Assembly: GCA_965203805.1 (NCBI GenBank)
Contig: OZ241917.1
Coordinates: forward strand, 3,840,001-3,904,000
DNA: 64,000 nucleotides
Direction of reading: 5' to 3'
Source: Candidatus Latescibacterota bacterium
GTDB lineage: Bacteria; Latescibacterota; UBA2968; GCA-2709665
The notes under the pieces are model-generated. The model worked only from the letters and a program-made list of their open reading frames with translations. It was not told the DNA's origin and made no database searches. Below, piece after piece: positions 9,664 to 59,803 of this stretch (position 1 is the first letter of the stretch; each line of letters opens with the position of its first letter). A program made the translations under genes and the position numbers.

Positions 9664-9692
9664 ACCATCTCACATCGTTTGATTTTGGATTC

Positions 9693-9726
9693 ATGGCGGC
9701 CGAGACGGCCGCCATAGTTTTTTGTT
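9693..9726 (+). terminator. Intrinsic terminator after darT
   Basis: ATGGCGGCCG-AGA-CGGCCGCCAT followed by a T-run. Confidence 0.7.
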
Positions 9727-9997
9727 CGGAGTCTCGTAAAGCTCTCATACTGTAAACATACGATACCGGTAACACAACACTGATCCGAACTGCGAATCTT
9801 CGAATGTTTCGGCTTGGCGGCAAGCAACGTGAATCGTTCCAGAAATTCGACCTGCGCTGAGATGGATTGCCACCAAACTCTGCCCAATTGTACAATTGAC
9901 GAATACGGTATTCTTGTCCGCCAAACGCAGGAAACGGACGAGAATATGACCGAACGGAACCAATACTCAAATGACAGATGAAATATCGCATCGGTTT

Positions 9998-39633: not shown

Positions 39634-40650
39634 GTGTTGGCCATGAGCAATCGAGAGTTGGTTTCCGTCATCATTCCAACGTATAATCGGGCGAGTTATC
39701 TGGTGCAGTCGCTGGAAAGTGTATTGGCTCAATCGTACCGGAACCTCGAAGTAATCGTTGTTAACGATGGCTCCACTGATGAGACAAGAGCGATATTGGA
39801 GCCTTACCGTAATCGAATTGCGTACTACGAAAAAACAAACGGCGGCAAATCATCAGCGTTGAATCTGGGACTCAAATACATTTCGGGAGAGTATGTCTGG
39901 GTTTTTGATGACGACGACGTCGCACTGCCTGAACTGGTCGAGTCCCATATGTCGGTTTTTGAATCCCAACCCCAGGTCGATTTCGTATATAGCGGATATG
40001 CGTTTTTTGAGGGCAAAGACTCAGACAACGTCATCGAGACGGTCAAGGCTCGTGCATATCCGGATCGTGAGATGGTGGGCGAACTGCTGAATGGGAATTT
40101 CATCAGTGGCGTTTCAGTCGTAGTCCGAAAACGATGTTACGATCGTGTGGGATGTTATGATGAACGGCTGATTCGCGCTCAGGACTACGATATGTGGATC
40201 CGCCTGGCACGCGCAGGTTTTAAAGCGGGCGTAATAGGACGGCCGTTAGTGAGGGTGCGTAAACACGAAGGCTTGCGGGGATCTGAAGAGGACCGGTTTG
40301 ACACCTCCGTTTTGATGGAAAAACACCTGGAGTATCATCGAATAATCATGCAAAAGGTTTATTGGGAAGTCCCGTTGGATGTCATCTCGCCGGAAATGGC
40401 GGATGCTCCGGATGATCCGAAACGAATCTTGCGGGCGTTGTTGAAGCGCACCTGGATTGTGGCCAATAGAATGTTGGTGGATGAGACCACCCGAGATCTT
40501 CGTATCGTTCGTGACCACCTTTCGCAATATGAAAAATTGCGCCTGGATGATCGTCAAAGGTCATTTCTTTCTGCATTGAAGGACTACGCGGGCAGACGAA
40601 GACAGTCCGAGATTGTGTCGTTGAGTGAGCTCTTATTACAATCTGCATGA
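39634..40650 (+). CDS. GT2-family glycosyltransferase
   Basis: VSVIIPTYNR, VVNDGSTD, N.GKSSALN.G, FDDDD and QDYDMW.R. Confidence 0.92.
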   Translation: MLAMSNRELVSVIIPTYNRASYLVQSLESVLAQSYRNLEVIVVNDGSTDETRAILEPYRNRIAYYEKTNGGKSSALNLGLKYISGEYVWVFDDDDVALPELVESHMSVFESQPQVDFVYSGYAFFEGKDSDNVIETVKARAYPDREMVGELLNGNFISGVSVVVRKRCYDRVGCYDERLIRAQDYDMWIRLARAGFKAGVIGRPLVRVRKHEGLRGSEEDRFDTSVLMEKHLEYHRIIMQKVYWEVPLDVISPEMADAPDDPKRILRALLKRTWIVANRMLVDETTRDLRIVRDHLSQYEKLRLDDRQRSFLSALKDYAGRRRQSEIVSLSELLLQSA

Positions 40651-42548
40651 CATGGGCGGCGGGGTATGTGGATGGCAGTGATTGGGATTCGTCGATGACA
40701 TCCAGAATAACCTCAATTGCAAAATCACTTATGTTCGTTCTGGTGTGGTTCGTGAGCCTGAACGTTGAAATGGCTGCAGCCGACAGTGTATGGGCACAGG
40801 TTGAAGACATCTTGGCGACAGATCAAGGATTGATGGTGCTGGATGGGATGGAAAAGGTTCCTGCGCGGTACGCAGGCAAAGACGATCCGGTCTACGGCGA
40901 CTGGCTGGTCCTCCACGCGTTTTCCGAGCCGGGAACGTTCAACCCGTATGGCGGGATGGACTATAGTTCTTACAGAATCCTGGAGAACGTGTTCGAGTCG
41001 ATGTTGTATATGGAGGCGCCGTCGCCGTACGAGTTCAAGGGCAAATTGGCGAAGGGGTATCCGGCGGTGTCCGAGGACAGGCTCTCCTACACCTTCGATC
41101 TACGGGAGGAGATTCGCTTTTCGGATGGGAGACCATTAACCACCGAAGATGTACTGTTCACCTTCAAGGTGATCAAGAATCCGGACGTCCAGTTATCGGG
41201 ATTCGTGCGAAGCGGCTTCAAGGACCTGAGTGCGGTTCGACCCGAGGGGCCTTATAGAATCACGTTTGCCTACCGGGAACCCTATTTTTATAATGCGATC
41301 AATATTGGACGGCGGTGGATCCTTCCGAAGCACTATTACGACCCCGACGGGCTGATGGACCGTGTCCGTATCGAGGACCTGATCGACGGCTCGTGGGAGG
41401 CGGGTCCCCAGGCCGACCTGGTGCGCCGGTTCGCGGAGCGGTTCAACAGGGATTTCAGCAAGCATGCGCTCGGCTCCGGCCCCTACGTGCTTCCCCATTC
41501 AGACGACGCGGCGTCGCCGGGGAAGACCGTTCTGGACCGGGACCCGGACTATTGGGGACGAGGCAGGAAGGACCTTCCTCCCGCAGGGTACGTGGACAAA
41601 CTGGTGTTCAACGTGGTTGTGAACCCGGATGCGGCGTTTATCGAACTGGTCAACGGCAACCTGGACGTCTTGAACATGTACCCCCTGCCATTCAAGGAGA
41701 AAAGCTGGTCTCCTGAATTCACGTCGCGATTTCTTAAGGTTATCCGTTACGCAAGCGGCATCAATTTCATCGCGTGGAACAACACCCATCCGATTTTCCG
41801 CGATAGGCGGGTCCGCCGGGCGATGAGTCATCTCACGCCGCGCAAGAGCATCATCCGAAATCTGATCTACGGACTCGGCGTACCCATCGACGGACCGGTG
41901 CATATGTCTCGCCCGGAATTTCACGCGGGACTGGAACCCCTTGAGCATAACCGCGATCGGGCGGTCGAATTGCTGCAGGCGGCAGGCTGGACGGACACAG
42001 ACCGGGACGGCGTTCTGGACCGTGTTGTGGACGGCGCCAAGACAGCATTCGAGTTTGAATTCCTGGTAGCGGCCGGCTCGCAGCTCAGCAAAGATATCGC
42101 CCTGGTGATGCAGGACGAACTTGCGGACGTGGGAATCGGCTGCAGGGTGCGTGAAATAGATCGTTCCATTTTTGGCGAGCGGTTGCGAAAGCGGGAGTAC
42201 GATGCGTTGTTCACCGGCGTGGGCAGCCATCCGGCGCTGCCGCTGGATCTACATTCAAGCTGGCATTCGTCGCAGGTCAAAGACGGCGCCAATTATTCCT
42301 GTTTCGCGAACGAAGAGGCGGACCGCATCCTGGAACGGTATCGCCGTACGTTCGACCCTGACCGACGGATCTCGCTCTACCGGAGGCTCCAGGAAATCCT
42401 GTACGATGAACAGCCCTATACGTTTATCTTCGTGGGGCGGTCGGTCACGGCCTACAGCAAGCGGTTCCAAGGGGTCAACTGGTATCCTTCGGGACGGACC
42501 GATTTTCTGGAATGGTGGGCGCCACCGTCGGACCGGCGTTATCCGTAA
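40647..42548 (+). CDS. ABC peptide substrate-binding protein (family 5), orphan
   Basis: EPGTFNP, LSYTFDLRE.IRFSDG.PLT.EDVLFTF, GSGPY, F.D.RVRRAMS and LQEILYDEQPY. No permease or ATPase gene nearby. Confidence 0.88.
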   Translation: MTWAAGYVDGSDWDSSMTSRITSIAKSLMFVLVWFVSLNVEMAAADSVWAQVEDILATDQGLMVLDGMEKVPARYAGKDDPVYGDWLVLHAFSEPGTFNPYGGMDYSSYRILENVFESMLYMEAPSPYEFKGKLAKGYPAVSEDRLSYTFDLREEIRFSDGRPLTTEDVLFTFKVIKNPDVQLSGFVRSGFKDLSAVRPEGPYRITFAYREPYFYNAINIGRRWILPKHYYDPDGLMDRVRIEDLIDGSWEAGPQADLVRRFAERFNRDFSKHALGSGPYVLPHSDDAASPGKTVLDRDPDYWGRGRKDLPPAGYVDKLVFNVVVNPDAAFIELVNGNLDVLNMYPLPFKEKSWSPEFTSRFLKVIRYASGINFIAWNNTHPIFRDRRVRRAMSHLTPRKSIIRNLIYGLGVPIDGPVHMSRPEFHAGLEPLEHNRDRAVELLQAAGWTDTDRDGVLDRVVDGAKTAFEFEFLVAAGSQLSKDIALVMQDELADVGIGCRVREIDRSIFGERLRKREYDALFTGVGSHPALPLDLHSSWHSSQVKDGANYSCFANEEADRILERYRRTFDPDRRISLYRRLQEILYDEQPYTFIFVGRSVTAYSKRFQGVNWYPSGRTDFLEWWAPPSDRRYP

Positions 42549-42878: not shown

Positions 42879-45800
42879 ATGGCCGATCTTGATGCCGGAA
42901 CGATCGTAGACGGACACTATGAGATTATCGCGCCGGTCGGGAGTGGGGGTATGGGAACCGTTTATCGTGCGCGCGACGTCCAGGATAATGAGACCATTGC
43001 GTTGAAGATGCTTAACATTCCGAAACACGGAGCGCAGCGTAGGTTCTTAAGGGAGTTTAGCATCCTGTCCAGGATCCGTTACCCCCGAATTGTACGCTCA
43101 CACAGGTGGGGGGTGTACAAGGGAAGACCTTATTTTTCCATGGATTACGTCCGGGGTCGGACTCTGTCTGACGTAATTGACGACGCGGTGGACCACGAGA
43201 AGCTGAGAACGACGTGGTTCCTCCAATTTGTACAGCAGATTGGCGATGGATTGGTGCACATCCACGAACAGGGCCTGATACACCGGGACTTGAAGCCATC
43301 CAACATAATGATTTCCCAAGCTGGCGGAAATCTCTACGTTACGATTATGGATCTGGGACTCGCACGATTTCAGGAGTCGTTTTACGGGCAACTTACTCAG
43401 CCCGGGACGACCACAGGTACGGTGGAGTATATATCTCCAGAACAGATCCGTGGTCGGTCTGTCGACCAACGTTCTGACTTGTATTCGCTGGGGGTAATAC
43501 TGTACGAAATTCTCACCGGGAAACCGCCGTTCTGCGGCGGAAATCCAGCTTCGGTAATCTTTCGGCATCTCAGAGATCGACCCCGTACGCCTCACGTGCA
43601 AGGCATTCACGACCGGATCACGAGCGTGGTCCTGAAGCTGCTGGAAAAGGATCCGATTGACCGCTATAACTCTGTTCGGAGTCTTCTTCAGGATCTGCGG
43701 GAAAACGCCAGTGCCAAATCCGCTATTGGGATCGGGACTCCTTCTGCTACAAAGCCACCCGATCATTTTTTGCAACCCCAATTTCAGGGCCGGGAAAGTG
43801 AATTGATGGTGCTTCGGAAGGTTCTGAGCGAATCTCGCGATAGTGTGACACGAATGGTCCTGATTAGCGGAGAGGCCGGAATCGGGAAATCTCAGCTGCT
43901 GAATGAGTTCCAAGCCGATGCCCGCGTTCACGGGATGCGTATCCTTAGCGGGCGTTGTTATGAGAGCGGTGGGCGGGCATACGGTCCATTCCTGAAAGCG
44001 TTGACGGACCTGGCAGGGAGGCCGGGCAATCAAGGTTCGGATCTGGAAGTATCCGTTATGCGGGTTCTGGCGCAAATTGAACAGCTGGCGGATAACGATC
44101 AGAATGATCCTTACGCAGTGATGGAAATTTTGTCGGAGTTCTTCCGGATCCTTAGCCGTGAAACACCTACCCTCGTTTGCGTGGACGATATTCAGTGGGC
44201 AGACGATCTGAGTTTGCGGTTTCTGGATTTCATGAGACGCGATACAGACCCATCGAAACTCTACTTCGGCCTGACGTGCCGGAAGGAGGGCGAAGACCAG
44301 TTGCCGGCTCGTATCGAGGCGGTATTTCCCAACGCAGACGGACCCGGAATCGCCCATTTGAGACTCGAGCCGCTCAGTTTTGTGGAAATCAAGAATCTTG
44401 TTGCATCCATACTAGGCGAACCGACCGTGCCGGATGACGAAGCCCGCAGAATTCGTAGGGAGACAGGTGGAAATCCTCTGTTTGCCGTCGAACTGGTCCG
44501 CGGGGCCATCGATGATGGCTCAATTCACCAGGACATTTCAGGCGGGTGGACATGGTCGCGGTCAACCGCGTGGCCCATGCCCGCGGGCATCACGCAGGCG
44601 ATCGATTCGCGTCTCCGTCGGTTGCGGTCTGACGACCGCCGGGCGCTGGAATACGCTTCGATTTTTCGGGGGGCGGTTTCATTCGATCTGATTTCGGAAA
44701 TATGGCGCGGCGATAACTTGCGGTTGCTGGAAGCACTTGAAGGGCTTGTCCGCCTGGGTCTTCTGAGAGCTCTCGAGGACAGCGAGGGGCGGTACCGGTT
44801 TTCTCATGGGTTGATCCAGCGGGCGGTTTACCACGGTATCTCAGAAAAGAAACGCGAACTGTTGCATCTGGAAGCAGGCCGAGCCCTGGAGCCGCGATTC
44901 GAGACGGACTCGGATGAGACGTTGGACGATCTGGCTTATCATTTCTCAAGGTCGAACGACATCGAGAAAACGGTGAGTTGGGTACTGGCAGCTGGTCGCA
45001 AGGCCGTTAATATGAGTGACTTTATACAGGCTGTAGACCACTTTGAAACCGCAATTAAAAGAGGCGCGTTCTTGGCGGATGCGCCAGATAGGATTTGTGA
45101 GGGGTCATTGCATTACATTGATTTTCTCTGCGCATATGCGGAAGCACTTTCCGGATGTGACAGGTTTGACGAAGCCCTAGCCGAGTTGGAGAAGGCCATG
45201 CGGTGGATTTCCAACGATACGCCCGCTCAAAAGGCCGCCGCCCTTACTATGTTGGGTATAAACCACTCAAATTCGGGGGAATTTAAGAAGGCCGAATCGG
45301 TGTGGATGAAAGCTCTGAGCCTTTACCGAGATCTGGGCGATGATGAGAACGAATTGGTGACCCTAGGACTTCTATCGAACGTCTACTTGGATCTGAACTA
45401 TAACAAAGCGGCGGCTAACTATTTTCGCTTGGCCGCTGAAAAGTGCCAGCAGCTAGGTGGCGCTGTAAACAATGCTCGCGCGGAGCTTTTTCTCGCATTT
45501 GAGGCAGAATTGGAGTGCCGAACTGAAGGAGCAAGAACGCTTCTGCAGTCTTCGCTCGATCAGTTGGATCAGAACGGAGACCGTATCTATCGATATTCAT
45601 GTTTGTACCAGTTGGGGCGCATTGAATTACGCTTGGGAAATCTTGACCGTGCGCAGGAGATTTTTCAAGAGCTTCTAGTCTTCTGGCGCAGGTGCGGATC
45701 GAGGAGTTCTGAAGCCAATGCCAATTTGTATCTCGGCAGGATTGCACTGGAACAGGGAGACGCCAACGGCGCGGAATCGCAGGCTCGTGCCGCGGAGCGA

Positions 45801-47741
45801 CTTGCTGTGGATCGAGATCTATGCAATGAATACCATAGGGCTTGTGCGCTTCTCGCCGAGATAATGGCAGAAAGCGGACGTGTCGATGAGGCTCTTTCTT
45901 GGGCTGAACGGGCATCTCCCGGTGTAGACGCCGGCGACGATATGCGCAGTACGGTTCTGACAGCTAAAGCAAAAGCTCTCTCGGCCGCGGGCCAAGATGA
46001 AAATGTCCAATCGCTATTGGAAGTAGCACTTCAAAGCCAGGACGCGCAGCCAGCATCGGAACAGGTACGTCTTCTTCTCGTTGCAGGAATACACCATTTG
46101 GACAGGGGTCAATCCGAGGATGCCCGATGTTACCTGGAGAGAGCCAAACGTGGAGCGGAGGTGATGGGAATGAGTTATTTATCTCGTAAAGCTTCCGACA
46201 TGATTGGCAGAATTCCAGTTCAATTCCGCGAGGAGTCAAACGTAGACCAGTTGGCTCGTGGACTTACTGAGAAGCAACTTGCGACACTTTACGAAGTGTC
46301 AAACGATTTGACGTCTGTGCTCGAATTGAATACGCTACTGGATCGAATTCTTGATCGGCTAATAGGAGTAAGCAGAGCCGAACGCGCTGTAATTGCCCTT
46401 AAGGACCAGACGGCGCAAGGTGTTCAGGCGGCACGTGTCTACAACCTAGAACATGCGGCAACACAGGAGATTAGCAGAAGCGTTATTAGGGAGTCGATGC
46501 GACGAAACGAACCGATTTTATGTGTGAACGCGCAGGTTGATGAACGTTTTGGTCAGCAGGCGAGTGTTGTCGCGTACGGCATCCGTTCGGTGCTTTGCGT
46601 CCCTCTACACCATGAAGAGTTGGGCGTAATTGGAGCGTTGTATATAGACCACCGCGGCATAGAGGACCTATTTGCGGAACGGGACCGGGCCATGTTATCG
46701 GCCTTTGGGAATCTGGTATCCATTGCGGTTGTCAATGCTCGGATGTACTCGCAAATCAGGGACCGGGCGCTATTCTTTCAGAAGCAGATCGAGGGTCGCC
46801 ACCAATTGGAAGAACTGATCGGTCAGAGCCGGGCGATGCAGGACGTGTTCAGCCTGGTTGACGTTGCGGCGGAAAGCGACGTGACCGTACTGATTCAGGG
46901 TGAAACCGGAACGGGCAAGGAACTGGCCGCTCAGGCCATCCACGCACGCAGCGAACGAAAGGAACAGCCTTTCATGTCGGCCAATTGCGCCGCGCTCACC
47001 CACGAACTGCTTCAGAGCGAACTCTTCGGTCACAAGAGGGGTGCCTTCACCGGGGCCGTATCCGACCGAAAAGGGCTGTTTCTATCCGCGGACGGCGGCA
47101 CGGTATTCCTGGACGAAATTGGAGATGCTTCTCCACAATTGCAAGCAAGCCTATTGCGGGTACTTCAGGACGGTGAGATACAGCGAGTCGGTGAGACGGT
47201 GGTCCGGAAAGTAGATGTCAGGGTGATCGCAGCCACGAACCGCGACCTGGAAGCGGATGTTCGCAACGGCTTGTTTCGAGAGGATCTATACTATCGCCTG
47301 AGGGTATTGCAGATTGAGATGCCGCCCCTTCGTGATCACATTGACGATATTCCGCTGCTGTCGGAGCATATTCTGAAACGTGTCTGTGCGGACCAGGGTA
47401 AGTCTGTGCCGGGTTTTACCGTAGGGTCAATACAGGCAATGATGGGTCATGAGTGGCCGGGAAACGTGCGAGAATTGGAAAACGAGATCAGACGCGCGGT
47501 TGCCCTGGTAGAAGAAGGCAAGGAAATCGCTGTCGATCTATTGTCCGAGAAGATCGGGCTTCACGAAAAATTGAACGGCCGGGAACGCGGTTATTTCAAA
47601 GCAAGTGTGATGGCCGTGAAAAGGAGGATGATTGTTGAAGCTCTCGGCAAATGCGGCGGGAATATCACTCGCACAGCCGATCAACTCGGGCTGAGCCGAA
47701 ACGGGCTTCAAAAGATGATGGCACGTTTCGGCATGAGGTGA
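42879..47741 (+). CDS. Ser/Thr kinase-STAND ATPase-TPR-GAF-sigma54 enhancer-binding activator with Fis HTH
   Basis: Kinase: [35 protein letters not shown]: [33 protein letters not shown]: [16 protein letters not shown]. Activator: [49 protein letters not shown]: [14 protein letters not shown]. Confidence 0.93.
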
Positions 47742-47882: not shown

Positions 47883-47915
47883 CAAATAGACGTATAAAGT
47901 GTATACATCTATTTG
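47883..47915. promoter_or_regulatory. Inverted repeat, putative upstream activating sequence
   Basis: CAAATAGACGTATA-AAGTG-TATACATCTATTTG has 14-bp arms with one mismatch. It lies about 90-120 bp upstream of the -24 element. Confidence 0.6.
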
Positions 47916-48001
47916 CTTAGGACTGGCTGAAGACTATAGACATATTGTTATAATCTATTGTTTTTAAATCGCTTGTGCAACTGCATGAGCGATTTTTTTA
48001 T

Positions 48002-48017
48002 TGGCATGCCAATTGCT
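48002..48017 (+). promoter_or_regulatory. sigma54 (-24/-12) promoter
   Basis: TGGCATGCCAATTGCT versus consensus TGGCACGNNNNTTGCW. GG at 48003-48004 and GC at 48015-48016 give exact N10 spacing. Directly downstream of a sigma54 activator gene. Confidence 0.85.
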
Positions 48018-48071
48018 ATAAACGTAACACGATAAATGCCAAAGCTTGTCCGCCCAAAAGGAGGAAGAATT

Positions 48072-48275
48072 ATGAAATCCGATGGATCCAAGAGGAATCT
48101 GCGTGCGATTAATGCAGCCGTAGGTAGGAACGGCAGGATCAACAGCTATCTGACATCGTCCGAGCCGTTTAAGGGGTTTGTCTGCACCTGGCCACGATTT
48201 CGCGTACTACCCCCTCCCACCAAGACAGTGGCCCACGTAGAGGCGTTCACCGAGGGATCTAGTCATTCGGGTTAG
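48072..48275 (+). CDS. Putative RiPP precursor peptide (67 aa, PapA-like leader)
   Basis: Strong RBS AAAGGAGGA before ATG. MKSDGSKRNLRAINAAVGRNGRINSY-LTSSEPFKGFVCTWPRFRVLPPPTKTVAHVEAFTEGSSHSG. Lies between the sigma54 promoter and the radical SAM gene. Confidence 0.78.
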   Translation: MKSDGSKRNLRAINAAVGRNGRINSYLTSSEPFKGFVCTWPRFRVLPPPTKTVAHVEAFTEGSSHSG

Positions 48276-48324: not shown

Positions 48325-49806
48325 TTGCTAAAGATTAAAAGATGTGAAATGCATCTTTTTAGGACGCCGCAAACTATCCATGCAATTGTATTCCAGGTCC
48401 GCACAGGTATTTTTTTCGAATTGGACCCGGTCTGCGAATCGATCTTGAAACGATGCGACGGGCTTTCGGCCGAAGCTTCTGTCTCCGAACTTGCTACTGA
48501 GCACAATCGTGACGATGTCCTCAATTCTATCGAGGTTCTGGAAAAGGTAGGGTTAATATCCGACGCTTCCTTGCAACTCCTTTCGTCGACAACATTGTAC
48601 GATGAACTGCCTTGCGAGAACCCAGGACTTAACAACTACTCAGATCCGTTTCATGTCACACTTCACGTGGCGCATGCGTGCAACATCAAATGCGCCTATT
48701 GCTTCGCCCATGGAGGCGACTACGGCGGACCGCCGGGTTTGATGCATCTCGACGTCGCGCATCAGGCCGTACGATGGGCGTTGGTTTCAGCCATCCCGCA
48801 CAAGAGATGCCAGATCGACTTCTTCGGCGGTGAGCCGCTACTGAATTTCGAACTGATTCAATCGACCGTGCCGTATGCCCGCGAATACGCCCATGAGTTA
48901 GGGGTTGGGGTATCATTTGGTGTAACTACCAACGGATCTTTGCTATCAGAAGAAATAGTCCAGTATCTAACTGGCGAAGAAATCCAGGTTATGGTTAGCG
49001 TAGATGGAAACGCGGCTATTCAAGATCGACTTCGAAAGTTCAATGACGGTAGCAAAACCTTCGATGTTGTGGCTCAAGGAGTCAAAAGGTTAACCCAGAA
49101 GTCGGCAGGGCAGGTGACTGTACATGCAACGATGACATCATTCAATATGGACGGAGACGCAATTGAAAGGGACTTGGAAAAACTAGGTGCGGCTCAGCTA
49201 GAGTTCGCTCAAGTCGTGGCATCCCCGAATGTTCCCTATGCATTTCGAGAGGAGCATCTTCCGGAGTTAAAGCGCGGACTTTACAAGAAGAGCAAGCGAG
49301 AACTTGAGGCAATTCTCAACGGTTCGCAGAATGCCGGATTTTTCGATGAATATATAGAGAGGTTGATGAGACGTGATAATGTCTGCCATGGCTGCCAGGG
49401 CGGGAAGACATTTTTCGCGGTGGCTGCGGACGGCGCGATCTATTTCTGTTCCAGTTTGGCGGACAGCCCGGAATTTAAGATGGGGGATGTATTCGCCGGA
49501 TTGGACGTACAAATCCAAGACCGAATCAAAGAGACGTTTCAGGTAGACAACCGAACCGATTGCCGGGCCTGCTGGGCAAGGAATCTGTGCGGCGGAAGCT
49601 GTTTATTTGATGCACGTACTTCAACCGGGGATCCGTTGAAACCCAATCCGGTGTCGTGCGAACAGATACGGTATCGATACGAGTTGGCGATGGAGATGAG
49701 TTTGGAAATCCAAAACCGAGACGAGGGGATTCTTAGAAACAGATACGATTTGGAGTGGACAGATCAAGAAGATGAACCGCCCCAACATTGTATTAGTCGC
49801 GAATAA
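48325..49806 (+). CDS. Radical SAM/SPASM peptide maturase with N-terminal RRE (CteB/PapB-like)
   Basis: RRE-like N-terminus (HLF...IVFQVRTGIFFELD), CNIKCAYCF, FFGGEPLLNF, TTNGSLL and SVDG...QD.LR. SPASM: CHGC...IYFC...CRACWARNLCGGSC...C. Confidence 0.92.
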   Translation: MLKIKRCEMHLFRTPQTIHAIVFQVRTGIFFELDPVCESILKRCDGLSAEASVSELATEHNRDDVLNSIEVLEKVGLISDASLQLLSSTTLYDELPCENPGLNNYSDPFHVTLHVAHACNIKCAYCFAHGGDYGGPPGLMHLDVAHQAVRWALVSAIPHKRCQIDFFGGEPLLNFELIQSTVPYAREYAHELGVGVSFGVTTNGSLLSEEIVQYLTGEEIQVMVSVDGNAAIQDRLRKFNDGSKTFDVVAQGVKRLTQKSAGQVTVHATMTSFNMDGDAIERDLEKLGAAQLEFAQVVASPNVPYAFREEHLPELKRGLYKKSKRELEAILNGSQNAGFFDEYIERLMRRDNVCHGCQGGKTFFAVAADGAIYFCSSLADSPEFKMGDVFAGLDVQIQDRIKETFQVDNRTDCRACWARNLCGGSCLFDARTSTGDPLKPNPVSCEQIRYRYELAMEMSLEIQNRDEGILRNRYDLEWTDQEDEPPQHCISRE

Positions 49807-49941
49807 TGACTGTTGGGGATGGCTGAGACAACGTCAACCGCCAGTGGATTTCCACTTGAGTCGCACGTCTTCGTCGGCGCTTGACTCGACCCGAATTCCG
49901 AAACCACTTGAGTATGGTTCTTATGAGACAGGATCTGAATC

Positions 49942-51111
49942 GTGCATAAGTGTGACCCACGAACTACAGTGGAATATCCGCTCGCCGTCTTCACACCTCA
50001 GGTTGGAACTGTTTCGGAGACCTTCATTCGTCGGCATGTAAATGATCTGTGCACTGGCGCATCCGTTACGATTACCTGTCAAGTCGGCGACCCGGTAAGA
50101 TCCAGTTGGAACTTTGTTGGACCGATGTTGGTTTTGGATCACGTAGAGCCGGTTCGTTTCACACGAGAGACAGGCTGGGAGTTCACTTCGAAGCACCTTA
50201 ACGCGATAAAGGGGTTTTTACAGGAACATCACGTTCAGATTGTGATGGGAGAATACCTGGATGTCTGTTTGCCTCTATTGGAGATCGCTGTAGAGTTGAA
50301 GATTCCATTTTGGGGGCATGCTCATGGCTACGACATTTCCATGCGCTTGCGCGATCACCGGCTTCGGAATGCATACCGCCGCTATAGGGAGGCGGCTGGA
50401 ATTATTGTGGGCTGTGATTGGGCCCGCAAACGGTTAATCCGTTTGGGTTTGACGGCAGACAATGTTCATGTGGTCCCATGCGGTGTAGACTTACCTAAAC
50501 AGCCTGTGGTTCGATCTCACTCGGAATATATCCGTTGCTTAGCCGTGGGTCGGTTTATTGAAAAGAAAGCACCTCTTGTAACGCTGGATGCATTCCGGCA
50601 GGCTATGACGGCATGTCCAAGATTGCGATTGCACTATATCGGTTCAGGTGATTTGGTTCCGTCGGCCCAAGAGTATATACGAAATCATGATTTGGTGAGT
50701 TGTGTCACGCTTTACGGTAGTCGATCTCACGATTTCGTGAAACAATCGATGCAGTGGGCGGATATTTTCCTACAACACAGTATGACCGATCCGGCAACTG
50801 GCGACCAGGAAATGATGCCAGTTGGGATTCTGGAGGCAATGGCAAACAGCCTGCCGGTAGTTTCGACCCGGCATGCGGGAATTCCCGAGGCAGTAGAAGA
50901 GAGTATAACAGGGTATCTGGTAGATGAAGGTGATAGCAGCGGTATGTGCGACTGCATTGTTCAACTGGCACAGAATCGTGAGTTGCGCAAACGAATGGGA
51001 TGTGCAGCCCGTGAGCGCGTCAATGGTCGTTTCTCCTGGGACCTTGAACGCACTGCTTTGTTGGAATTATTAGACCTTAGATACGTGGCCAATCGCTTTG
51101 GCGCTTCATGA
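49942..51111 (+). CDS. GT4-family glycosyltransferase (WcaL-like; start may be GTG 49969)
   Basis: SETFI, HAHGYD, VGRFIEKK, ADIFLQHS.T...GDQE..PV.ILEAMA..LPVVSTRHAGIPE. Confidence 0.92.
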   Translation: MHKCDPRTTVEYPLAVFTPQVGTVSETFIRRHVNDLCTGASVTITCQVGDPVRSSWNFVGPMLVLDHVEPVRFTRETGWEFTSKHLNAIKGFLQEHHVQIVMGEYLDVCLPLLEIAVELKIPFWGHAHGYDISMRLRDHRLRNAYRRYREAAGIIVGCDWARKRLIRLGLTADNVHVVPCGVDLPKQPVVRSHSEYIRCLAVGRFIEKKAPLVTLDAFRQAMTACPRLRLHYIGSGDLVPSAQEYIRNHDLVSCVTLYGSRSHDFVKQSMQWADIFLQHSMTDPATGDQEMMPVGILEAMANSLPVVSTRHAGIPEAVEESITGYLVDEGDSSGMCDCIVQLAQNRELRKRMGCAARERVNGRFSWDLERTALLELLDLRYVANRFGAS

Positions 51112-51292: not shown

Positions 51293-51883
51293 ATGCACAG
51301 ACTCGACGACGATAATGAGTATTTCGCGCTTGTAATGTTGGACGTTCGGACAGCGTTTTTCGACATCCAACGTATATTGCAGGTGGACCAGGAAAAACAT
51401 CCCGATTATGACGTCTTGTTTGTAGTCGGACGCGATGTACGGGACAATTTGAATCGGGCGTTACGGCAACGAGCCCCAGACGTTACGGTAATACCGAGGA
51501 AGGACGCAGCGTCGCATCTGGCCCTCGCCAAACTCGTCGAGGCACGCCAAAGATATTCACATGTTCTTGCGGAGAGACTGGATCGCTATCTCGAGACGCA
51601 CTTTCAGAAGAAGTCGCTGTCATTGGGAGATTTGCGAGAGAGTTTTCAAATTTCATCGAGTTATATTACCCGGCTGTTCCGGGAACACGTAGGGATGTCA
51701 TTTCGAAAACGGTTGAATTCGTACCGTGTACAAAAAGCCAAGCACCTGTTAAAAACTACAGATCAGACAGTGGATTGCATTGCAAGAGAGGTTGGATTCA
51801 GGAATCACGCACGGCTGACAGAAGCGTTTTACAGGTTCGAAGGCATGCCGCCGGGCCGGTTTCGCAGGATGTGTGTTTTTTGA
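51293..51883 (+). CDS. AraC-family transcriptional regulator (start uncertain)
   Basis: YLETHF....LSL..L...F.IS.SYI.RLF....G.SF...L...R...AK.LL......IA..VGF....L...F....G..P..FR. Confidence 0.85.
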   Translation: MHRLDDDNEYFALVMLDVRTAFFDIQRILQVDQEKHPDYDVLFVVGRDVRDNLNRALRQRAPDVTVIPRKDAASHLALAKLVEARQRYSHVLAERLDRYLETHFQKKSLSLGDLRESFQISSSYITRLFREHVGMSFRKRLNSYRVQKAKHLLKTTDQTVDCIAREVGFRNHARLTEAFYRFEGMPPGRFRRMCVF

Positions 51884-51938
51884 GACTTCGTAATGTAGGA
51901 AATCCAAGTCAGGCAGGACAAGCTGAGGTTGTTGCCCT

Positions 51939-52889
51939 ATGGTTACGGTCAAAAACATGCCGGAAGGAACTTCACACCGGGTTCATTCATCCGCTGTCGT
52001 CGGAACCGGAACAATGATTGGGGATTATACTTCGATTATGAAGGGGGTAATGGTTGGCGCAGAATGTGAAATCGGACAACATGTGGTAATTCACCCGGAT
52101 ACGATAATTGAAGATGGTGTGCGTATTGACGACCATGCGACGATCGGGAAGTTGCCAATGAGAAGTGTTGCCAGCGCTTTCAATCGAAGTGACCAGCCCG
52201 AGCCAGCAAGGATCGGAAGCGGCTGTTTGGTTGGTACATCAGCGATCCTGTACCGAGGGTGTCGAATTGGAAATCATGTCCTGATTGCTGACCAGGCGAC
52301 TGTACGAGAGGATAGCACGGTGGGGGATTATACGATTATTGGACGGAACGTCGCGCTCGAAAGCCAGGTAATCGTAGGGAGGTTGTGCAAGATTGAGGCA
52401 GGAGCGTATGTTGCCGGACCTTCAGAGATTGAGGAAGGTTGTTTTGTTGCCCCAGGCGTGGTTGTTACCAATGACAACTTCATGGGCCGGACGGAAGCCA
52501 GAAAACGGAAATTTAGAGGGATTAGAATTGAAGTCGGAGGCCGAATTGGTGCTAATTCTACAATCCTCCCCGGTAAACGAATCGCGCCTGATGGAGTGGT
52601 GGCCGCAGGTGCGGTTGTAACACGTGACGTGCCGGCGCGCACGGTGGTTTCCGGACTCCCTGCGCGTTATCTCCGCGATGTAACGCCCGAGGAGTTTTGG
52701 CGGCATCAAGAACCAGTGGTACGCGGTGACCTCGAAATGGAACCCCGAGGCACAGATTCCAGTTCACGAGAATGCGAACGGAACAGGGGGTCGGCAGAAG
52801 AGGGTCGCCTAGCGGGGTACTTCTTCAACGAATTGACATTTGAGTATCAAGAACTACCTGGAAATGGGGGATCGGCATTTGGGAATTGA
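51939..52889 (+). CDS. Hexapeptide-repeat acyltransferase (WbpD-like sugar N-acyltransferase)
   Basis: Left-handed beta-helix repeats, with FVAPGVVVTND, IGANSTILPG and VAAGAVVTRDVP...VSGLPAR. Confidence 0.88.
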   Translation: MVTVKNMPEGTSHRVHSSAVVGTGTMIGDYTSIMKGVMVGAECEIGQHVVIHPDTIIEDGVRIDDHATIGKLPMRSVASAFNRSDQPEPARIGSGCLVGTSAILYRGCRIGNHVLIADQATVREDSTVGDYTIIGRNVALESQVIVGRLCKIEAGAYVAGPSEIEEGCFVAPGVVVTNDNFMGRTEARKRKFRGIRIEVGGRIGANSTILPGKRIAPDGVVAAGAVVTRDVPARTVVSGLPARYLRDVTPEEFWRHQEPVVRGDLEMEPRGTDSSSRECERNRGSAEEGRLAGYFFNELTFEYQELPGNGGSAFGN

Positions 52890-53460
52890 AATGGGGCCGC
52901 AGCATTATGACAAGGTATACGAGTCTACGGAACTCTACCGCCTTCACTATTCGCAGTCCCGCTGCTACGAATTATGGAAGCGGGTCTTGAGGTTTATGCG
53001 GGTATTTCCGTCACCGCGTGTTTTGGAAATCGGGTGCGGAACCGGGCAGTTTGCGCATATGCTCTGGGATACGGGCTATAGGCAATACCATGGTTTCGAT
53101 TTCAGTACCGCAGCAGTTCGAATTGCGACGGGTGCCTGCGAACAGTCGTTTACGGTCGCTGACGCAAGAAAGCCTGAAGCATATCAATGGAATTACAATC
53201 TGGCGCTTGCAATCGATTTTCTGGAACACGTTGAAGACGATTTTGAGATCCTTGGACACATTAGTCCGGGGACGCCACTTGTATTTACCTTGCCGACCTT
53301 CGATGATCCAGCGCATGTGAGATGGTTTCGGCATCCGGACGAGATCTATGATCGGTATGGAGTCTGCATCAGTTTTACAGGTTTATCGTTTGTCAAGCCG
53401 TGGTTCGTGTGTCTGGGACACGTGGCTCGACCGGCAGTGAAATCTGTACCATTGGTTTGA
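52840..53460 (+). CDS. Class I SAM-dependent methyltransferase
   Basis: VLEIGCGTG, YHGFDFS, VADA and FLEHVEDD. Confidence 0.88.
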   Translation: MSIKNYLEMGDRHLGIEMGPQHYDKVYESTELYRLHYSQSRCYELWKRVLRFMRVFPSPRVLEIGCGTGQFAHMLWDTGYRQYHGFDFSTAAVRIATGACEQSFTVADARKPEAYQWNYNLALAIDFLEHVEDDFEILGHISPGTPLVFTLPTFDDPAHVRWFRHPDEIYDRYGVCISFTGLSFVKPWFVCLGHVARPAVKSVPLV

Positions 53461-53519
53461 GTTAAACCGTCGTCGATATCAAAGAAATCCCGATATCCAA
53501 TCTGTCGAAGAGATGATGC

Positions 53520-54305
53520 ATGTCACCTATCTGGGACTCTGATTTCAGTTACGCATATTTTGAAAATATCCTCGAAGTTGCGAAACGCAATTATTGTCTG
53601 AGTCTCCTTGGTGACGCTCCAGAGGTACTACAGCGACCTTCCGCAAGGCCGCGGCTATTCCTTCGCCATGACGTGGATTTCGATTTGGGTGCGGCGCTTA
53701 GGTTGGCGGAAGTAGAGAGCAGGTTCAATGTCACTGCCACCTATATGGTTATGGTCAATTCCCCTTTCTATCGTGCAGACACGAAGCACGCAAGTAGCAT
53801 ATTCCTTCGTCTTATGTCACTGGGACATGAAATAGGTTTACACTTTTACTTTAGGCGGTGTGCTTGTTTGGGCGAGGACGTCGGGGTCGATGCCTTGTTG
53901 CCAGAAATACAAAATGCATGCGCGCAACTTGAAGATAGTATTCGACTTCCTGTAACGTCCTTTTCTCTTCATCGTCCGTTAAGCCGGTTCTTGGGTGGCG
54001 ACTTGCTTGTCGGTGGGAAAGTGAATGCATACGCAGGTGTTCTAATGGATTGGTATCTGTCTGATTCAAAAGGATCCTGGCGCGAAGGAGAACCGCTGCC
54101 GAAACTGTTAAATCCAGTACGTCCAAATTTGCAGCTGTTGATCCATCCCATTTGGTGGGGCGGCAGTCGGATTGCACCAAGGATGCGCTTAGAACGGTTC
54201 CTAGATGAAAAGGCTTGCGGTCTGACCGCACATCAACTGAAGGAACTAAATGCTACACTCCAAGAATATGTCACGATCCCGAATTTAAGGATTCGTGGAG
54301 GCTAA
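53520..54305 (+). CDS. Polysaccharide deacetylase-like (NodB/WbmS-like) protein
   Basis: LRHDVD, ATYMV, GHEIGLH, FS.HRP, YLSDS...W and LQLLIHPIWW. Confidence 0.8.
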   Translation: MSPIWDSDFSYAYFENILEVAKRNYCLSLLGDAPEVLQRPSARPRLFLRHDVDFDLGAALRLAEVESRFNVTATYMVMVNSPFYRADTKHASSIFLRLMSLGHEIGLHFYFRRCACLGEDVGVDALLPEIQNACAQLEDSIRLPVTSFSLHRPLSRFLGGDLLVGGKVNAYAGVLMDWYLSDSKGSWREGEPLPKLLNPVRPNLQLLIHPIWWGGSRIAPRMRLERFLDEKACGLTAHQLKELNATLQEYVTIPNLRIRGG

Positions 54306-54380
54306 CTTCGACGGAAAAGTCGTGTGCATGCTGCGCAATGGATTCTCGTAGTTAAGACAAAGACCGGGGGGAATAACGAA

Positions 54381-55097
54381 GTGCCGATTGTAATGAGTGC
54401 GCATCAACCCAATTGTTTGCCCTGGCTGGGTTTCTTTCACAAAATGACCTATAGCGACGTATTCGTTTTTCTGGATGATGTTCAATTTACAAATAAGACA
54501 TATACAAATCGGTACTATGTGAAATTCAACGGCAATAAAGTGCGCCTAAGCGTACCTGTGCTTAAATCAAAATCGCTTCGAAAGATAAGAGAGATCGAAA
54601 TAGACACTCGTATGTTCTCGTACAAACACATTCAGACATTCCATCATGCGTACGGGAAATCTATCGGTTTTGATGAGATATTCCCAATTCTCCTTCCGCA
54701 CTTTGAGATGGGAAAAATCAATCTTGCGGAATTAAATATGGGGCTCATTAGGGCACTGGCAGACTATATGGAGTTGACACCCCGATTTATAAGGTTGTCG
54801 GATCTGGGACTCAAGAGTAAGAAAAACCAGCTACTAATCGATATAGCTAAAAAATGTGAAGTGGACATTTTTGTTTCAGGAGTTGGCGCCAGAGCCTATA
54901 TCTCAGGTCACGAATACAGATATGCAGAGAAAGGGATATTATTGGCATTCCAGAATTTCATCCATCCTGTTTACGTCCAATCAACCGGCCCCTTCCTGGC
55001 AGGGTGCAGTATTGTCGACTTGCTATTTAATACTGGAAGACTTGCTCTGGACCATCTAGTCAGCCAGAAGCAAGCTCCATACATATATGCTAAGTGA
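54381..55097 (+). CDS. WbqC-family protein
   Basis: HQPN.LPWLGFFHK...DVFVFLDDVQF...NR, LSVPV, SG.GA..Y, F.HPVY.Q and SIVDLLFN.G. Confidence 0.9.
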   Translation: MPIVMSAHQPNCLPWLGFFHKMTYSDVFVFLDDVQFTNKTYTNRYYVKFNGNKVRLSVPVLKSKSLRKIREIEIDTRMFSYKHIQTFHHAYGKSIGFDEIFPILLPHFEMGKINLAELNMGLIRALADYMELTPRFIRLSDLGLKSKKNQLLIDIAKKCEVDIFVSGVGARAYISGHEYRYAEKGILLAFQNFIHPVYVQSTGPFLAGCSIVDLLFNTGRLALDHLVSQKQAPYIYAK

Positions 55098-55185
55098 TAT
55101 AGGGCGCGGAAAAGTGCTCAATGAACTCCTAAGGGTTTGAGGTCGGCCGGCAGTTCGTACCCTTTAATGCTTCGGATGGTTAACG

Positions 55186-56709
55186 GTGCTAATACTCACA
55201 GGCGTCTGCATCATTGCGGCGTTGGTTAGAGTTATCCCTCGGTTATTCGCGCCAGCTATGGTCACCGATACCTATGGGCATTGGATCCTAATAAAAAAAA
55301 TAAGGGAAAAGGGTATTATCGAGGCACATAATGATGTGCACTATTACCCGTTAGGCTTTCATTGGCTGCTCAGTTTTATTCCAGATAGACTTTTGCCCCA
55401 TTGGGACCGGATCAATGGGGCCTTTTTTGACGTTTTACACGTCGTCCTCTTTTCATTCGCAATTTGGAGGCATTCGGTCGAAAGCAAAATGCCTGATGAA
55501 ATTGTGTGGGGCTGGGCGCCGTTACTTCTGGCGCTATCTCCGGCCTGGTTATCGTTGGGGCGAGGCCCAAGAGCTTACCATGGCACTGCGCGCGTATTTG
55601 GTGAGTTATTGGTCAGCGGAGTCTTCGTATGTATTTGGATATACCAGGATACTGGTTCGATGGAGTGGCTGACTTGTGCGATCATTGTGAGCGTAGTACT
55701 GATGCTATCGAGCAAATTTGGCTCGCAGGTCCTTTTGTCGTTCTGTTTGATTATTGGCGTACTCCAACGCAGTATCATTCTAATGTCTATACCTTTTGTC
55801 TCAGGTCTGCTGGCATATGCGTTCTCAAAGAAGGCATATGGCACGATTCTTAAAGGGCATATCCGTCATTTAAAATGGTATGCGAGCAATATCAAAAAGA
55901 AGAGAATGTTTATTGCAAACCGTAACTCCCTCCGGGAAATATGGCGGATATACAGGCAATCTGGCATTCTAGCGGCTGCGTACAGGTTTTTTGGTGTAAA
56001 TAGCGTGGGTGTAGGGATTTTTCAACATCTAATTTTGATAGTCGTCCTGATCCAAACCGGCGGAAGCGACGTATCTGGTACGTTGCCAAATTACCTATGG
56101 CATTGGTTGTTCGCGGGCGTCTGTCTGTGGATGCTTTCTTCCATGAAATTTCTGTTGTTTATCGGCGCTGCTGAAAGGTATCTCTTTGCAATGGCGATCC
56201 CGGAATACATCCTGATCGCAGACTACTTGCTCGATGGTCCGGCAGGAGCACGCTGGGTGATACTCTTCGGATCTGTTTTCGTTTGGCTAGTCTTCGTATG
56301 GCAGATGCGCATACAGTATGGTGGGTACTATTATTTGGAGACCAAAGCAAGAAAACAAACCATAGGTTTTCTTAATACGCTAACTTCAATGAGACTGCTC
56401 ACGTTCGACCGATCGCCTGCATGGGACATAGCATATAAGACCAATCACCACCATTTTATGATTGTTCCGGAATTTGACGCAACATCATCATGGGATGATC
56501 TCTTTGAATATGATACATATCCCAGCTGGAAGGCTGTGTCCCTTTTAGATCTACGATTAATTGTAGTGAGTCGCGAGGCAGTGATGGATGCCATACGAAA
56601 GAAGATCCCTGTTGCATTTCCGTTTTCGGAGCTTGAGAAGCTGTTCGACAATGGAATGTATCAGGTATATCGTGTGCCAGAGTCCTTGTTTCATCCAATC
56701 GGGTCCTGA
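55186..56709 (+). CDS. Multi-TM protein, possible GT-C-fold transferase
   Basis: TDTYGH, YYPLGFHWLL, about 11 TMs, ERY, and a soluble C-terminal domain ending LEKLFDNGMYQVYRV. Confidence 0.6.
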   Translation: MLILTGVCIIAALVRVIPRLFAPAMVTDTYGHWILIKKIREKGIIEAHNDVHYYPLGFHWLLSFIPDRLLPHWDRINGAFFDVLHVVLFSFAIWRHSVESKMPDEIVWGWAPLLLALSPAWLSLGRGPRAYHGTARVFGELLVSGVFVCIWIYQDTGSMEWLTCAIIVSVVLMLSSKFGSQVLLSFCLIIGVLQRSIILMSIPFVSGLLAYAFSKKAYGTILKGHIRHLKWYASNIKKKRMFIANRNSLREIWRIYRQSGILAAAYRFFGVNSVGVGIFQHLILIVVLIQTGGSDVSGTLPNYLWHWLFAGVCLWMLSSMKFLLFIGAAERYLFAMAIPEYILIADYLLDGPAGARWVILFGSVFVWLVFVWQMRIQYGGYYYLETKARKQTIGFLNTLTSMRLLTFDRSPAWDIAYKTNHHHFMIVPEFDATSSWDDLFEYDTYPSWKAVSLLDLRLIVVSREAVMDAIRKKIPVAFPFSELEKLFDNGMYQVYRVPESLFHPIGS

Positions 56710-56804
56710 ACCCCATCTAAATGGATAGAACAAAAGGGCACAGGGCCGGGATAAGACTCTTACTCGCACAGTCGCAGGGACGCGTTCGTTTCCCGTGAAC
56801 TGAA

Positions 56805-58589: not shown

Positions 58590-59803
58590 AGGTCTGCATG
58601 ATTACGTTTCAATATCCGCCGGTGTTTAACGGGGGTGTAGGGAGTGTCGCCTTCCGATTGGCTAGGAATCTGGCGTCGGCAGGAGTTGACGTGCATGTTA
58701 TCGCTCCGGGTACCCATCATTTGGATGACCCGATAGCGCCTGCCTCCGAGGATGGAGCAATTGTCCACCGAACTTATCCGGCGCTTGGTTCCTACTTTGG
58801 AGACCATACCCAACTGGGGCGAATCGGCGACCACGTAATCAAATTGCATCGCGAGGTGGATTTCGATTTGGTACATGCTTTGTTTCTGGTGCCGGCGGGA
58901 CAGTTAGGCGCGATTGTAGCTGGGCAAATCGACCGGCCATTGGTGGCTAGCGCTCATGGAAGCGATATTGAATTGATGCGGTACAACCCGGCGCTGATCG
59001 GGACATTGCGGTGGGTACTCAATGAGGCGGATATCGTTACGGCTGTTAGTGCTGAGTTGCTGAACAAAGCACAAAGATTCGCCAACATAAGGGACGGGAG
59101 AGTTATTCCGAATGCTTTCGATCCGGAATCGTTCGAGCCGTGGTCCCTTAAGGAAGTATCGGCCAACCAGGGATGGCGGTTTCAGGTATTCGTGGAGTCG
59201 TTTTTGCGTACGAAACGGCGTGGCGGGCCGGTGATCGGCACAGCCGGGATGATTCGACCTGCTAAGGGTCTCCCGGTTCTGCTGGATGCTTTTCATAAGT
59301 TAATGGGGACGGTGTCAGATGCGCATCTGCTGATAGTAGGTGATATCGTAAACCCCCAGGATAAGAAGAGATATTTAAGTCGAATCAAGACTATGGGATT
59401 GAAACGAAAGGTAACATTGACCGGTTCGGTACCGCCAAGGCAGGTGATGGCCTGGATGCGGGAAATGGATGTTTTCGCCCTTCCGTCGTTACATGAAGGA
59501 TCTCCTTGCGCATTGATGGAGGCGATGGGTTCTGGGCTCGCCGTAGTCGCGACGAACGTAGGCGGAATACCAGACCTCGTGACGGATGGTGTGAATGGAA
59601 TGCTGGTTGACTACGGCGACTCAGGGATACTGGCGGAGAAACTGTCCGCATTGTGTCTTGATACTGCGACCCGCGCCCGGCTCGGCATTGCTGCGAAGCA
59701 AACAGTCGAAACCGGCCTCCTGCCGAAAGACGAAACGGAAACCTGGCTGGACGCGTATTGTTCTGTCATTGCTGAAACATGCCCGCCCGAAATTGTGAAA
59801 TAA
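58586..59803 (+). CDS. GT4-family glycosyltransferase
   Basis: MKVCMITFQYPP..GG, HGSD, TAVS, IPNAFD, KG..VLL.A and LPSLHEG.P..LMEAM..G..VVATNVGGIPD. ATGA overlap and GGAGG RBS. Confidence 0.93.
   Translation: MKVCMITFQYPPVFNGGVGSVAFRLARNLASAGVDVHVIAPGTHHLDDPIAPASEDGAIVHRTYPALGSYFGDHTQLGRIGDHVIKLHREVDFDLVHALFLVPAGQLGAIVAGQIDRPLVASAHGSDIELMRYNPALIGTLRWVLNEADIVTAVSAELLNKAQRFANIRDGRVIPNAFDPESFEPWSLKEVSANQGWRFQVFVESFLRTKRRGGPVIGTAGMIRPAKGLPVLLDAFHKLMGTVSDAHLLIVGDIVNPQDKKRYLSRIKTMGLKRKVTLTGSVPPRQVMAWMREMDVFALPSLHEGSPCALMEAMGSGLAVVATNVGGIPDLVTDGVNGMLVDYGDSGILAEKLSALCLDTATRARLGIAAKQTVETGLLPKDETETWLDAYCSVIAETCPPEIVK

Follow-up and report, generated by a model that had tools for sequence, protein, structure and literature searches.

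The precursor gene and its peptide

The question raised by this locus is whether a small open reading frame (ORF) directly in front of a radical S-adenosylmethionine (SAM) enzyme gene encodes the precursor of a peptide synthesized by ribosomes and modified after translation (RiPP) and, if so, what the enzyme might do to it. The window, that is the whole stretch of DNA analysed, comprises 64,000 nucleotides of a Candidatus Latescibacterota genome (GCA_965203805.1, contig OZ241917.1, positions 3,840,001 to 3,904,000). The ORF very probably is the real precursor of the adjoining enzyme. The fuller account favoured here, which is probable but carries appreciable doubt, is that of a ranthipeptide-like, Latescibacterota-restricted family in which expression is activated through sigma-54, the leader is bound by a RiPP recognition element (RRE) of the enzyme and one thioether is formed from C38. 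Such a system would be a new variant, confined to one phylum, of the RiPP systems of ranthipeptide type, with the chemistry argued by analogy, the acceptor from sequence patterns and the leader binding from a structural model. The features concerned are:

48072-48275, + strand: precursor ORF, 67 amino acids by translation
48060-48065, + strand: ribosome-binding site GGAGGA, 6 nucleotides before the ATG at 48072
48072-48149, + strand: leader, residues 1-26, with the motif L10-x-x-I13-N14 ... G21-x-I23-x-x-Y26, from alignments
48150-48275, + strand: core, residues 27-67, with the stop codon; C38 codon at 48183-48185
48325-49806, + strand: radical SAM/SPASM maturase, 493 amino acids (Pfam, NCBIfam)

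The initial annotation, made from the letters alone, had placed the start of the ORF at 48072 rather than at an alternative ATG at 48036, and this holds good, as GGAGGA stands 6 nucleotides upstream of the former and the latter is without such a site. Start codons with strong AAGGAGG-type sites are found at fixed distances before the leader motif in the loci of the family, and six peptides of the window's type (g1-type) have a start and ribosome-binding-site-like sequence 9 codons before the L..IN motif; the start codon is ATG in five of the six and TTG, behind a weak site, in the other (L024). Translation likewise bears out the description of the core that had been given: a single Cys (C38, within FVCTWPRF) with R42 at i+4, a PPP at residues 47-49 and ten Ser/Thr in residues 27-67 (seven past the Cys together with T28, S29 and S30). 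The core block reads W40-P41-x-F43-x-x-L46-P47-P48-P49 and is followed by T50/T52 and E57, whilst residues 10-26 of the leader are LRAINAAVGRNGRINSY. Nor is a Cys-rich core hidden in the other two forward frames, as had also been stated, for inside the peptide gene these hold no Cys-rich ORF of at least 35 amino acids; one other frame has a 52-amino-acid open stretch with three Cys, which spans the terminator and promoter described below.

Scans of the window peptide and its paralogue against Pfam and NCBIfam, up to E=10, produced no match, and a word-based search of 5.8 billion proteins with the window peptide as query returned only the peptide itself, which is no evidence of uniqueness since small ORFs are seldom called. 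The best score in the ESM Atlas (0.85) was to eukaryotic transposase fragments, which is at chance level and was disregarded.

A precursor family so far found in the Latescibacterota only

An important consideration in deciding whether the ORF is a precursor is whether it recurs beside relatives of the enzyme, as the initial annotation had supposed it should. Among named-record loci with a radical SAM enzyme at least 44% identical to that of the window, a family peptide was present in all 39 (33 found by a regular expression with ATG, five in printed frames and one, L045, by a hidden Markov model). These loci largely overlap a set of 27 loci from relatives, being from the same species genomes, and in 26 of the 27 the peptide lies 1-49 nucleotides before the radical SAM match; the remaining locus is at a contig end, where the C-terminal half of the peptide is visible. 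The same arrangement is repeated within the window's own genome, in a paralogous module (L008, G000:C1:1912000-1930000) with a radical SAM enzyme 60% identical (9160-10767 of that locus, - strand) and a peptide 38% identical directly upstream (about 10662-10952, - strand), preceded by a 1628-amino-acid activator with the same architecture as that of the window. The paralogous peptide has 72 amino acids and two Cys. Fragments resembling the window gene at 40647-42548 occur upstream of the paralogous module, so the duplication was larger than the module.

Alignment of 32 peptides showed N14, C38 and P49 to be invariant and L10, G21, I23, P44 and P47 to be at least 90% conserved. Two subtypes can be distinguished. 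That of the window (11 sequences) has the pattern L-x-x-[IV]-N-[GA]-x-x-D-x-x-G-x-I-x-x-[YC], then C-x-W-P-x-F-P-x-L-P-P-P, and that of the genus g6 has M-A-T-R-R-K-L-T-L-I-N-G, then C-x(6-7)-V-P-P-L-P-F-P-D-D-D-D-W-D-D-F-D. Searched with a profile, 1.84 billion representative proteins yielded 20 matches at E<=0.001, of which 18 were short and belonged to this family, with no PapA-like peptide among them, and the other two were long proteins. The alignments and the profile search show that the core with one Cys and no CX3D motif, which had been remarked upon as non-canonical, is a conserved trait of the family and not a quirk of the window copy. In loci further removed the peptides are shorter and retain L-x-x-[IV]-N; in three (L073, L097 and L099) the single Cys is in a [TS]-L-S-C context and in another (L098) the only Cys is at the C-terminus. 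One of these distant loci, L073 (also seen as L102, G038:C1:2098000-2114000), appears to be a decaying module in which the first radical SAM gene is split into ORFs of 143 and 329 amino acids, an ISL3 transposase gene occupies the position of the activator gene elsewhere and the peptide is short and divergent, starting MAHLRRINRH.

The enzyme is present in 16 of 41 related genomes, those of g6 holding as many as three copies each, and in 26 of the 168 genomes of a sample of the phylum; by species, it was found in 3/14 others of the window's genus and 16/21 of g6. The labels of the 39 named records are Candidatus Latescibacterota or Latescibacteria in 37 cases, Gemmatimonadota in one and Poribacteria in one, the Gemmatimonadota-labelled record being placed by the genome collection in the genus of the window. 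After these, the enzymes of highest similarity found were SCIFF maturases of Caldisericota, about 30% identical and accompanied by typical six-Cys peptides. Judged from these records, the precursor family is found so far only in Candidatus Latescibacterota, a phylum of which we know of no cultured member.

The substitution pattern is that of a protein-coding gene. For peptides of the g6 subtype the ratio of non-synonymous to synonymous substitution rates (dN/dS) had a median of 0.35 over 300 pairs, 99.7% of the pairs being below 1, and in most pairs of the window type (L006/L010 left out) 69-83% of synonymous sites differ as against 31-49% of non-synonymous sites; the peptide ORF is therefore coding and under purifying selection. 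When the window was compared by blastn (word size 9) with the orthologous locus L101 the peptide gene gave no alignment and the adjoining radical SAM gene was 74% identical. With the peptides 53% identical in amino acids, it follows that the peptide diverges faster than the enzyme.

It might be argued that the ORF arose by chance or is not a substrate at all (a regulatory ORF upstream of the radical SAM gene, for instance), its likeness to PapA being coincidental, and the empty Pfam and NCBIfam scans, the self-only match and a PapA match of just 6/17 residues (see below) could all be cited for this. However, frame, start, ribosome-binding site and residues are conserved across loci whose enzymes are 44-60% identical, and the purifying selection, the same-family profile matches and a complex model that beat its controls all argue in the opposite direction, so that this explanation is strongly disfavoured and extremely improbable.

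The maturase and its proposed recognition of the leader

The adjoining gene encodes a protein of the broad class of radical SAM/SPASM RiPP maturases with an RRE. The Radical_SAM domain is matched with an E value of 4.6e-12 (Pfam), the N-terminal PqqD-like RRE (residues 21-78) at 19.6 bits and E 0.0012, under the Pfam cut-off of 23.4, and in 12 homologues both the CX3CX2C motif (C119, C123, C126) and eight Cys of the SPASM region (C354, C357, C375, C413, C416, C422, C426 and C445) are invariant. Among solved structures the nearest is that of CteB (5WGG, E 3.8e-54).

The initial annotation had likened the leader of the peptide to that of PapA, quoting the latter. The quoted string was correct, because the same string, LKQINVIAGVKEPIRA, is printed in the available part of PMC12715619, with a Y after it in one construct. 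Aligned without gaps, window residues 10-26 and the PapA leader share 6/17 residues (L, I, N, G, I and Y), and the L, I, N, I and Y of PapA correspond to conserved leader positions of the Latescibacterota family. A conserved leader Asn has been proposed to be required for RRE binding, according to the portion of PMC9413430 available. When the PapA leader was scored against a weight matrix derived from the leader columns of the family itself it reached 5.28 bits, a value attained by 102 of 200,000 shuffles and 7 of 25,382 background 17-mers; the comparison uses one 17-residue PapA string from a paper and, having been picked after the fact, lends modest support. A PapA-like leader motif (L-x-x-I/V-N ... 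I-x-x-Y) beside a maturase of the PapB/SCIFF/QhpD clade, as first described, is nevertheless supported.

Modelling of the RRE-leader complex, which had been suggested as a check, placed the leader on the strand of the RRE. The model of peptide with enzyme scored 0.83, the best of three controls scoring 0.00; 58 of 80 solved complexes and 2 of 110 mismatched pairs attain the mark applied to such models, and the runs had a contact agreement of at least 71% and a predicted local distance difference test (pLDDT) value of at least 50 for the partner. In the model, residues 8-17 of the leader run alongside residues 27-34 of the enzyme, within its PqqD-like domain, N14 makes contact with residues 347-350 and 459 of the enzyme, and the contacts include residues 38-39 and 42 of the peptide and 356-359, 375 and 426 of the enzyme. 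C38 is thereby put close to Cys of the SPASM region. It may well be the case that the leader, from about L10 to V17 and including N14, binds the PqqD-like RRE as an added strand, and that this docking would bring C38 to that side of the active site on which the auxiliary clusters lie.

Comparison with known systems

Three thioether systems invite comparison, and the window module departs from each. With PapA/PapB, the freyrasin ranthipeptide system of Paenibacillus polymyxa, it has in common a radical SAM/SPASM maturase with an N-terminal RRE, a leader containing L-x-x-I-N ... I-x-x-Y (the binding pose being a predicted one) and a Cys as the likely sulfur donor. In contrast to PapA, for which six CX3(D/E) motifs are given in the accessible text of PMC12715619, the window core has one Cys with R42 at +4, and CX3D/E occurs at the core Cys in none of the 11 window-type peptides. 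The Pro-rich block past the Cys, which is family-wide, the control by sigma-54 and the Latescibacterota host are further differences. SCIFF/CteB provides the highest NCBIfam score (243 bits) as well as the closest structure, and the predicted leader binding presumably resembles the CteB-CteA complex, but SCIFF peptides, as seen in the Caldisericota loci, have six Cys in about 45 residues as against the one Cys of the window peptide. QhpD, which matures QhpC of quinohemoprotein amine dehydrogenase by forming Cys-to-Asp/Glu thioethers, gives a similar score (234 bits); unlike QhpC, the window peptide is free-standing and there are no dehydrogenase genes in the scanned neighbourhood.

No description of the precursors, of a single-Cys Pro-rich core or of the pairing with sigma-54 was found in the literature, the subscription papers (including the original freyrasin and ranthipeptide ones) and supplements lying outside the search and possibly listing related precursors. 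For sponge-associated Latescibacterota the part of PMC12993501 at hand gives RiPPs only in the form of clusters that antiSMASH has automatically labelled 'ranthipeptide', their function being stated as unknown.

Crosslink chemistry and the acceptor residue

By analogy with its nearest relatives CteB, PapB and QhpD, the enzyme would be expected to form one intramolecular thioether from C38, a proposal that is finely balanced and leans towards acceptance. In 27 of 29 g6 peptides the Asp run starts 14-15 residues past the core Cys. Window-type peptides have Ser/Thr 12-14 residues past the Cys in 10 of the 11 (T50 and T52 in the window), and seven have Glu at +19 (E57 in the window). The spacing from Cys to Asp, Ser, Thr or Glu suggests ring closure immediately beyond the Pro-rich block, and the patterns suggest that g6 peptides may use Asp as the acceptor and those of the window subtype Thr/Ser or, failing that, Glu. 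For the window peptide itself the acceptor would be either T50/T52, directly behind the Pro-rich block, or E57, and the ring would comprise 13 to 20 residues, though the assignment to these residues is tentative and rather doubtful.

Several points weigh against this account. None of the curated family cut-offs is passed by the enzyme, which scores 243 bits with the SCIFF maturase model TIGR03974 (NCBIfam; cut-off 425), 235.6 with the Nif11 radical SAM model TIGR04064 (518.7), 233.7 with QhpD TIGR03906 (453) and 223.1 with PapB NF047865 (340), so that its chemistry is inferred from the clade and not from a family; with every score below its cut-off the maturase constitutes a separate clade among the thioether-forming maturases. 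No Asp or Glu is conserved across the window type, P0023 has no acidic residue at all past the Cys, and L010, P0016 and P0023 are without Glu at +19 or +20. The window copy also deviates at two nearly invariant positions, having G18 where the others have D and R44 where they have P. As to the leader, PapB modifies leaderless and foreign-leader substrates in vitro, according to the available text of PMC12715619, and the leader match is therefore no proof of leader dependence. The complex model was built with its own alignments and with ligands, unlike its calibration. A similar complex has moreover been solved already (5WGG, which we take to hold CteA bound to CteB), so that likeness to it, and not binding of this copy, may be why the model passed the mark. 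Finally, there is no peptidase or exporter among the nine downstream ORFs scanned (48.3-56.7 kb).

Alternatively, the same precursor and enzyme might engage in a different chemistry, C38 being joined to a carbon of the W-P-x-F / P-x-x-P-x-P block or to an alpha-carbon (a sactionine), or simply oxidized. Past the leader only C38 and the prolines are conserved family-wide, no acidic residue is conserved in the window type and the enzyme falls outside every curated family. Two of the four best-scoring models, however, SCIFF and PapB, are those of named thioether or ranthipeptide maturases, much lower scores are given by the models for sactisynthases and cyclophanes (RumMC 113 bits, YhhB 84 and FxsB 63), and in 27/29 g6 peptides the Asp run keeps a constant spacing from the Cys, as would be expected of a PapB- or QhpD-like acceptor. 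A different chemistry is for these reasons thought unlikely, and a thioether from C38 continues to be preferred. The lack of any conserved Asp or Glu in the window type, and of any in P0023, does make a non-acidic acceptor plausible. It is possible, if somewhat unlikely, that the crosslink is new to this enzyme clade, with the Cys joined over the Pro-rich block to a non-acidic acceptor, followed in the window's lineage by glycosylation by a co-transcribed GT4 enzyme, the whole forming a self-contained sigma-54 cassette; the acceptor could then be a Thr/Ser after LPPP in the window type, or a carbon of the block, and the signal for the activator might be the peptide itself.

Two other modifications were considered and rejected. 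A Cys-Trp link, put forward in the initial annotation, fails as a family-wide reaction, W40 being kept in the window subtype only and not in the larger g6 subtype; that annotation's interpretation is thus upheld as regards the precursor, the PapA-like leader motif, the one-Cys core as a family trait and the start at 48072, but not in this respect. Formylglycine formation, for which a C-x-P-x-R motif is expected, does not fit, as the core is without this motif and the anaerobic sulfatase maturase model gave 109 bits only.

The outcome is a precursor family now defined by a leader motif, a single donor Cys, a Pro-rich hallmark and two subtypes, and tied to a distinct enzyme clade and a dedicated sigma-54 activator. 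As a small two-gene system it is directly testable and could be co-expressed in E. coli, and it may bring to light an acceptor residue or a ring size that is new among radical SAM enzymes forming thioethers. It would also be a clear case of a RiPP under enhancer-dependent control.

Predicted sigma-54-dependent expression

The region upstream of the peptide gene contains the following:

42879-47741, + strand: sigma-54 enhancer-binding activator, 1620 amino acids (Pfam)
47883-47945, no strand assigned: three copies of ATAGAYRTAT, candidate activator binding sites (pattern count)
47966-47995, + strand: terminator-like hairpin with T-run, between the activator gene and the peptide promoter
48002-48017, + strand: sigma-54 -24/-12 promoter, TGGCATGCCAATTGCT (consensus match)

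The promoter is the sole match to TGGCAY-N5-TTGCW on both strands of the 64 kb (0.10 expected), and a looser form of the pattern occurs within 200 nucleotides upstream of the peptide start in all 33 loci in which the peptide was found by the regular expression with ATG. The activator carries Ser/Thr kinase, AAA_16, MalT-like TPR, GAF, sigma-54 AAA+ and Fis-type HTH domains (Pfam). In g6 loci the upstream ORFs, truncated at 3 kb, have a TPR-GAF-sigma54-HTH architecture, and in most loci an activator C-terminus ending RLGLR is found upstream of the peptide. The genome also encodes rpoN (422.7 bits as against a cut-off of 277.35). With promoter spacing, an activator bearing a sigma-54 domain and rpoN all present, the operon has, from its sequence, the marks of sigma-54 dependence, and each module is, as far as sequence can tell, paired with its own giant kinase-type sigma-54 activator and a -24/-12 promoter. 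The kinase-TPR-GAF activator would turn on the promoter at 48002-48017 to give a transcript of the peptide and radical SAM genes, and perhaps also of the GT4 gene.

The candidate binding sites are 57-119 nucleotides upstream of the promoter, a distance usual for enhancer sites, and two of the three form a 14-nucleotide inverted repeat with a 5-nucleotide spacer. Three of the four matches to ATAGAYRTAT in the window are in this stretch (0.15 expected), but the pattern was derived post hoc from the same stretch and is a lead only. A sigma-54 system that switches on polyketide and non-ribosomal peptide genes has been described in Myxococcus, in the accessible portion of PMC7910581; the principle of a sigma-54 switch for secondary metabolism is the same, whereas here there is a dedicated giant kinase-type activator for each RiPP module.

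Downstream genes

The gene following that of the maturase may contribute a tailoring enzyme:

49942-51111, + strand: GT4 glycosyltransferase (Pfam), possible tailoring enzyme, its membership of the module being uncertain

The initial annotation had regarded the Ser/Thr residues of the core as candidate glycosylation sites, and for this there is something to be said on either side. A GT4 gene comes after the radical SAM gene or genes in the window, in the orthologous locus of a sister species (L070/L101, genome G001) and in L039, L073 and L098, the last of which has a heptosyltransferase-like gene besides, and in the window no terminator-like site was found between the radical SAM and GT4 genes. 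The GT4 of the window is 58% identical to that of the orthologous locus. On the other hand, the recurring GT4s are not close to one another, none is among the scanned downstream genes of the paralogous module and the listed g6-type loci, and the window GT4 heads a run of polysaccharide-type genes. The idea of Ser/Thr glycosylation is left weak, and glycosylation of the window peptide by the GT4 is accordingly doubtful.

The neighbourhood also bears on whether the modified peptide leaves the cell. It could instead be an intracellular signal, to which the TPR/GAF domains of the module's activator might respond in an auto-inducing cassette, or the precursor of a cofactor; a variant would have it processed and glycosylated to a small molecule, as happens to the peptide from which mycofactocin is made. 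That every module comes with a separate activator bearing ligand-type domains, that g6 genomes hold up to three modules, that no exporter or peptidase was found among the ORFs scanned in the window module and that glycosyltransferase genes recur beside loci with two radical SAM genes are all in keeping with such a role. Downstream of the paralogous radical SAM gene, however, and on the same strand, are genes for a DUF5128-like beta-propeller protein, an AhpC/TSA-like protein and an ABC exporter, which fits export, and no peptidase that might excise the peptide was found, so that an intracellular role is considered decidedly unlikely.

Synteny of the orthologous locus L101 with the window extends from 40.6 to 59.8 kb. 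In the window the run at 51293-59803 comprises an AraC-family regulator, a NeuD/PglB-like hexapeptide acetyltransferase, a methyltransferase, an unnamed protein of 261 amino acids, a WbqC-like protein and an unnamed protein of 507 amino acids, together with a second ORF matching GT4-like genes by BLAST only (58550-59803); it is syntenic in L101 save for the 261-amino-acid and WbqC genes, which have no match there. Between its first radical SAM gene and the GT4 gene L101 has a second radical SAM/SPASM gene of the thioether clade (L101:10897-12375; QhpD 195 bits and SCIFF 185 bits, both under cut-off), and the window is without about 1.6 kb at this position (against window 49734-49976). A second radical SAM gene is present also in L039, L073, L097, L098 and L099.

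Downstream genes in the g6 loci are variable; among them are those for an unnamed 300-amino-acid protein, for a UvrD-like protein accompanied by a short sigma-54 activator, and for DUF354, and no common tailoring gene was found. Two arrangements occur in 11 loci each. One has the radical SAM gene followed by a sigma-54 activator of about 335 amino acids and a protein of about 615 amino acids with a UvrD-helicase N-terminal domain; in the other it is followed by the unnamed 300-amino-acid protein, which has no Pfam or NCBIfam match and in which a SAM-methyltransferase-like glycine motif can be made out by eye (example g6-type coordinates are L042:4548-7417 and L041:4447-5355).

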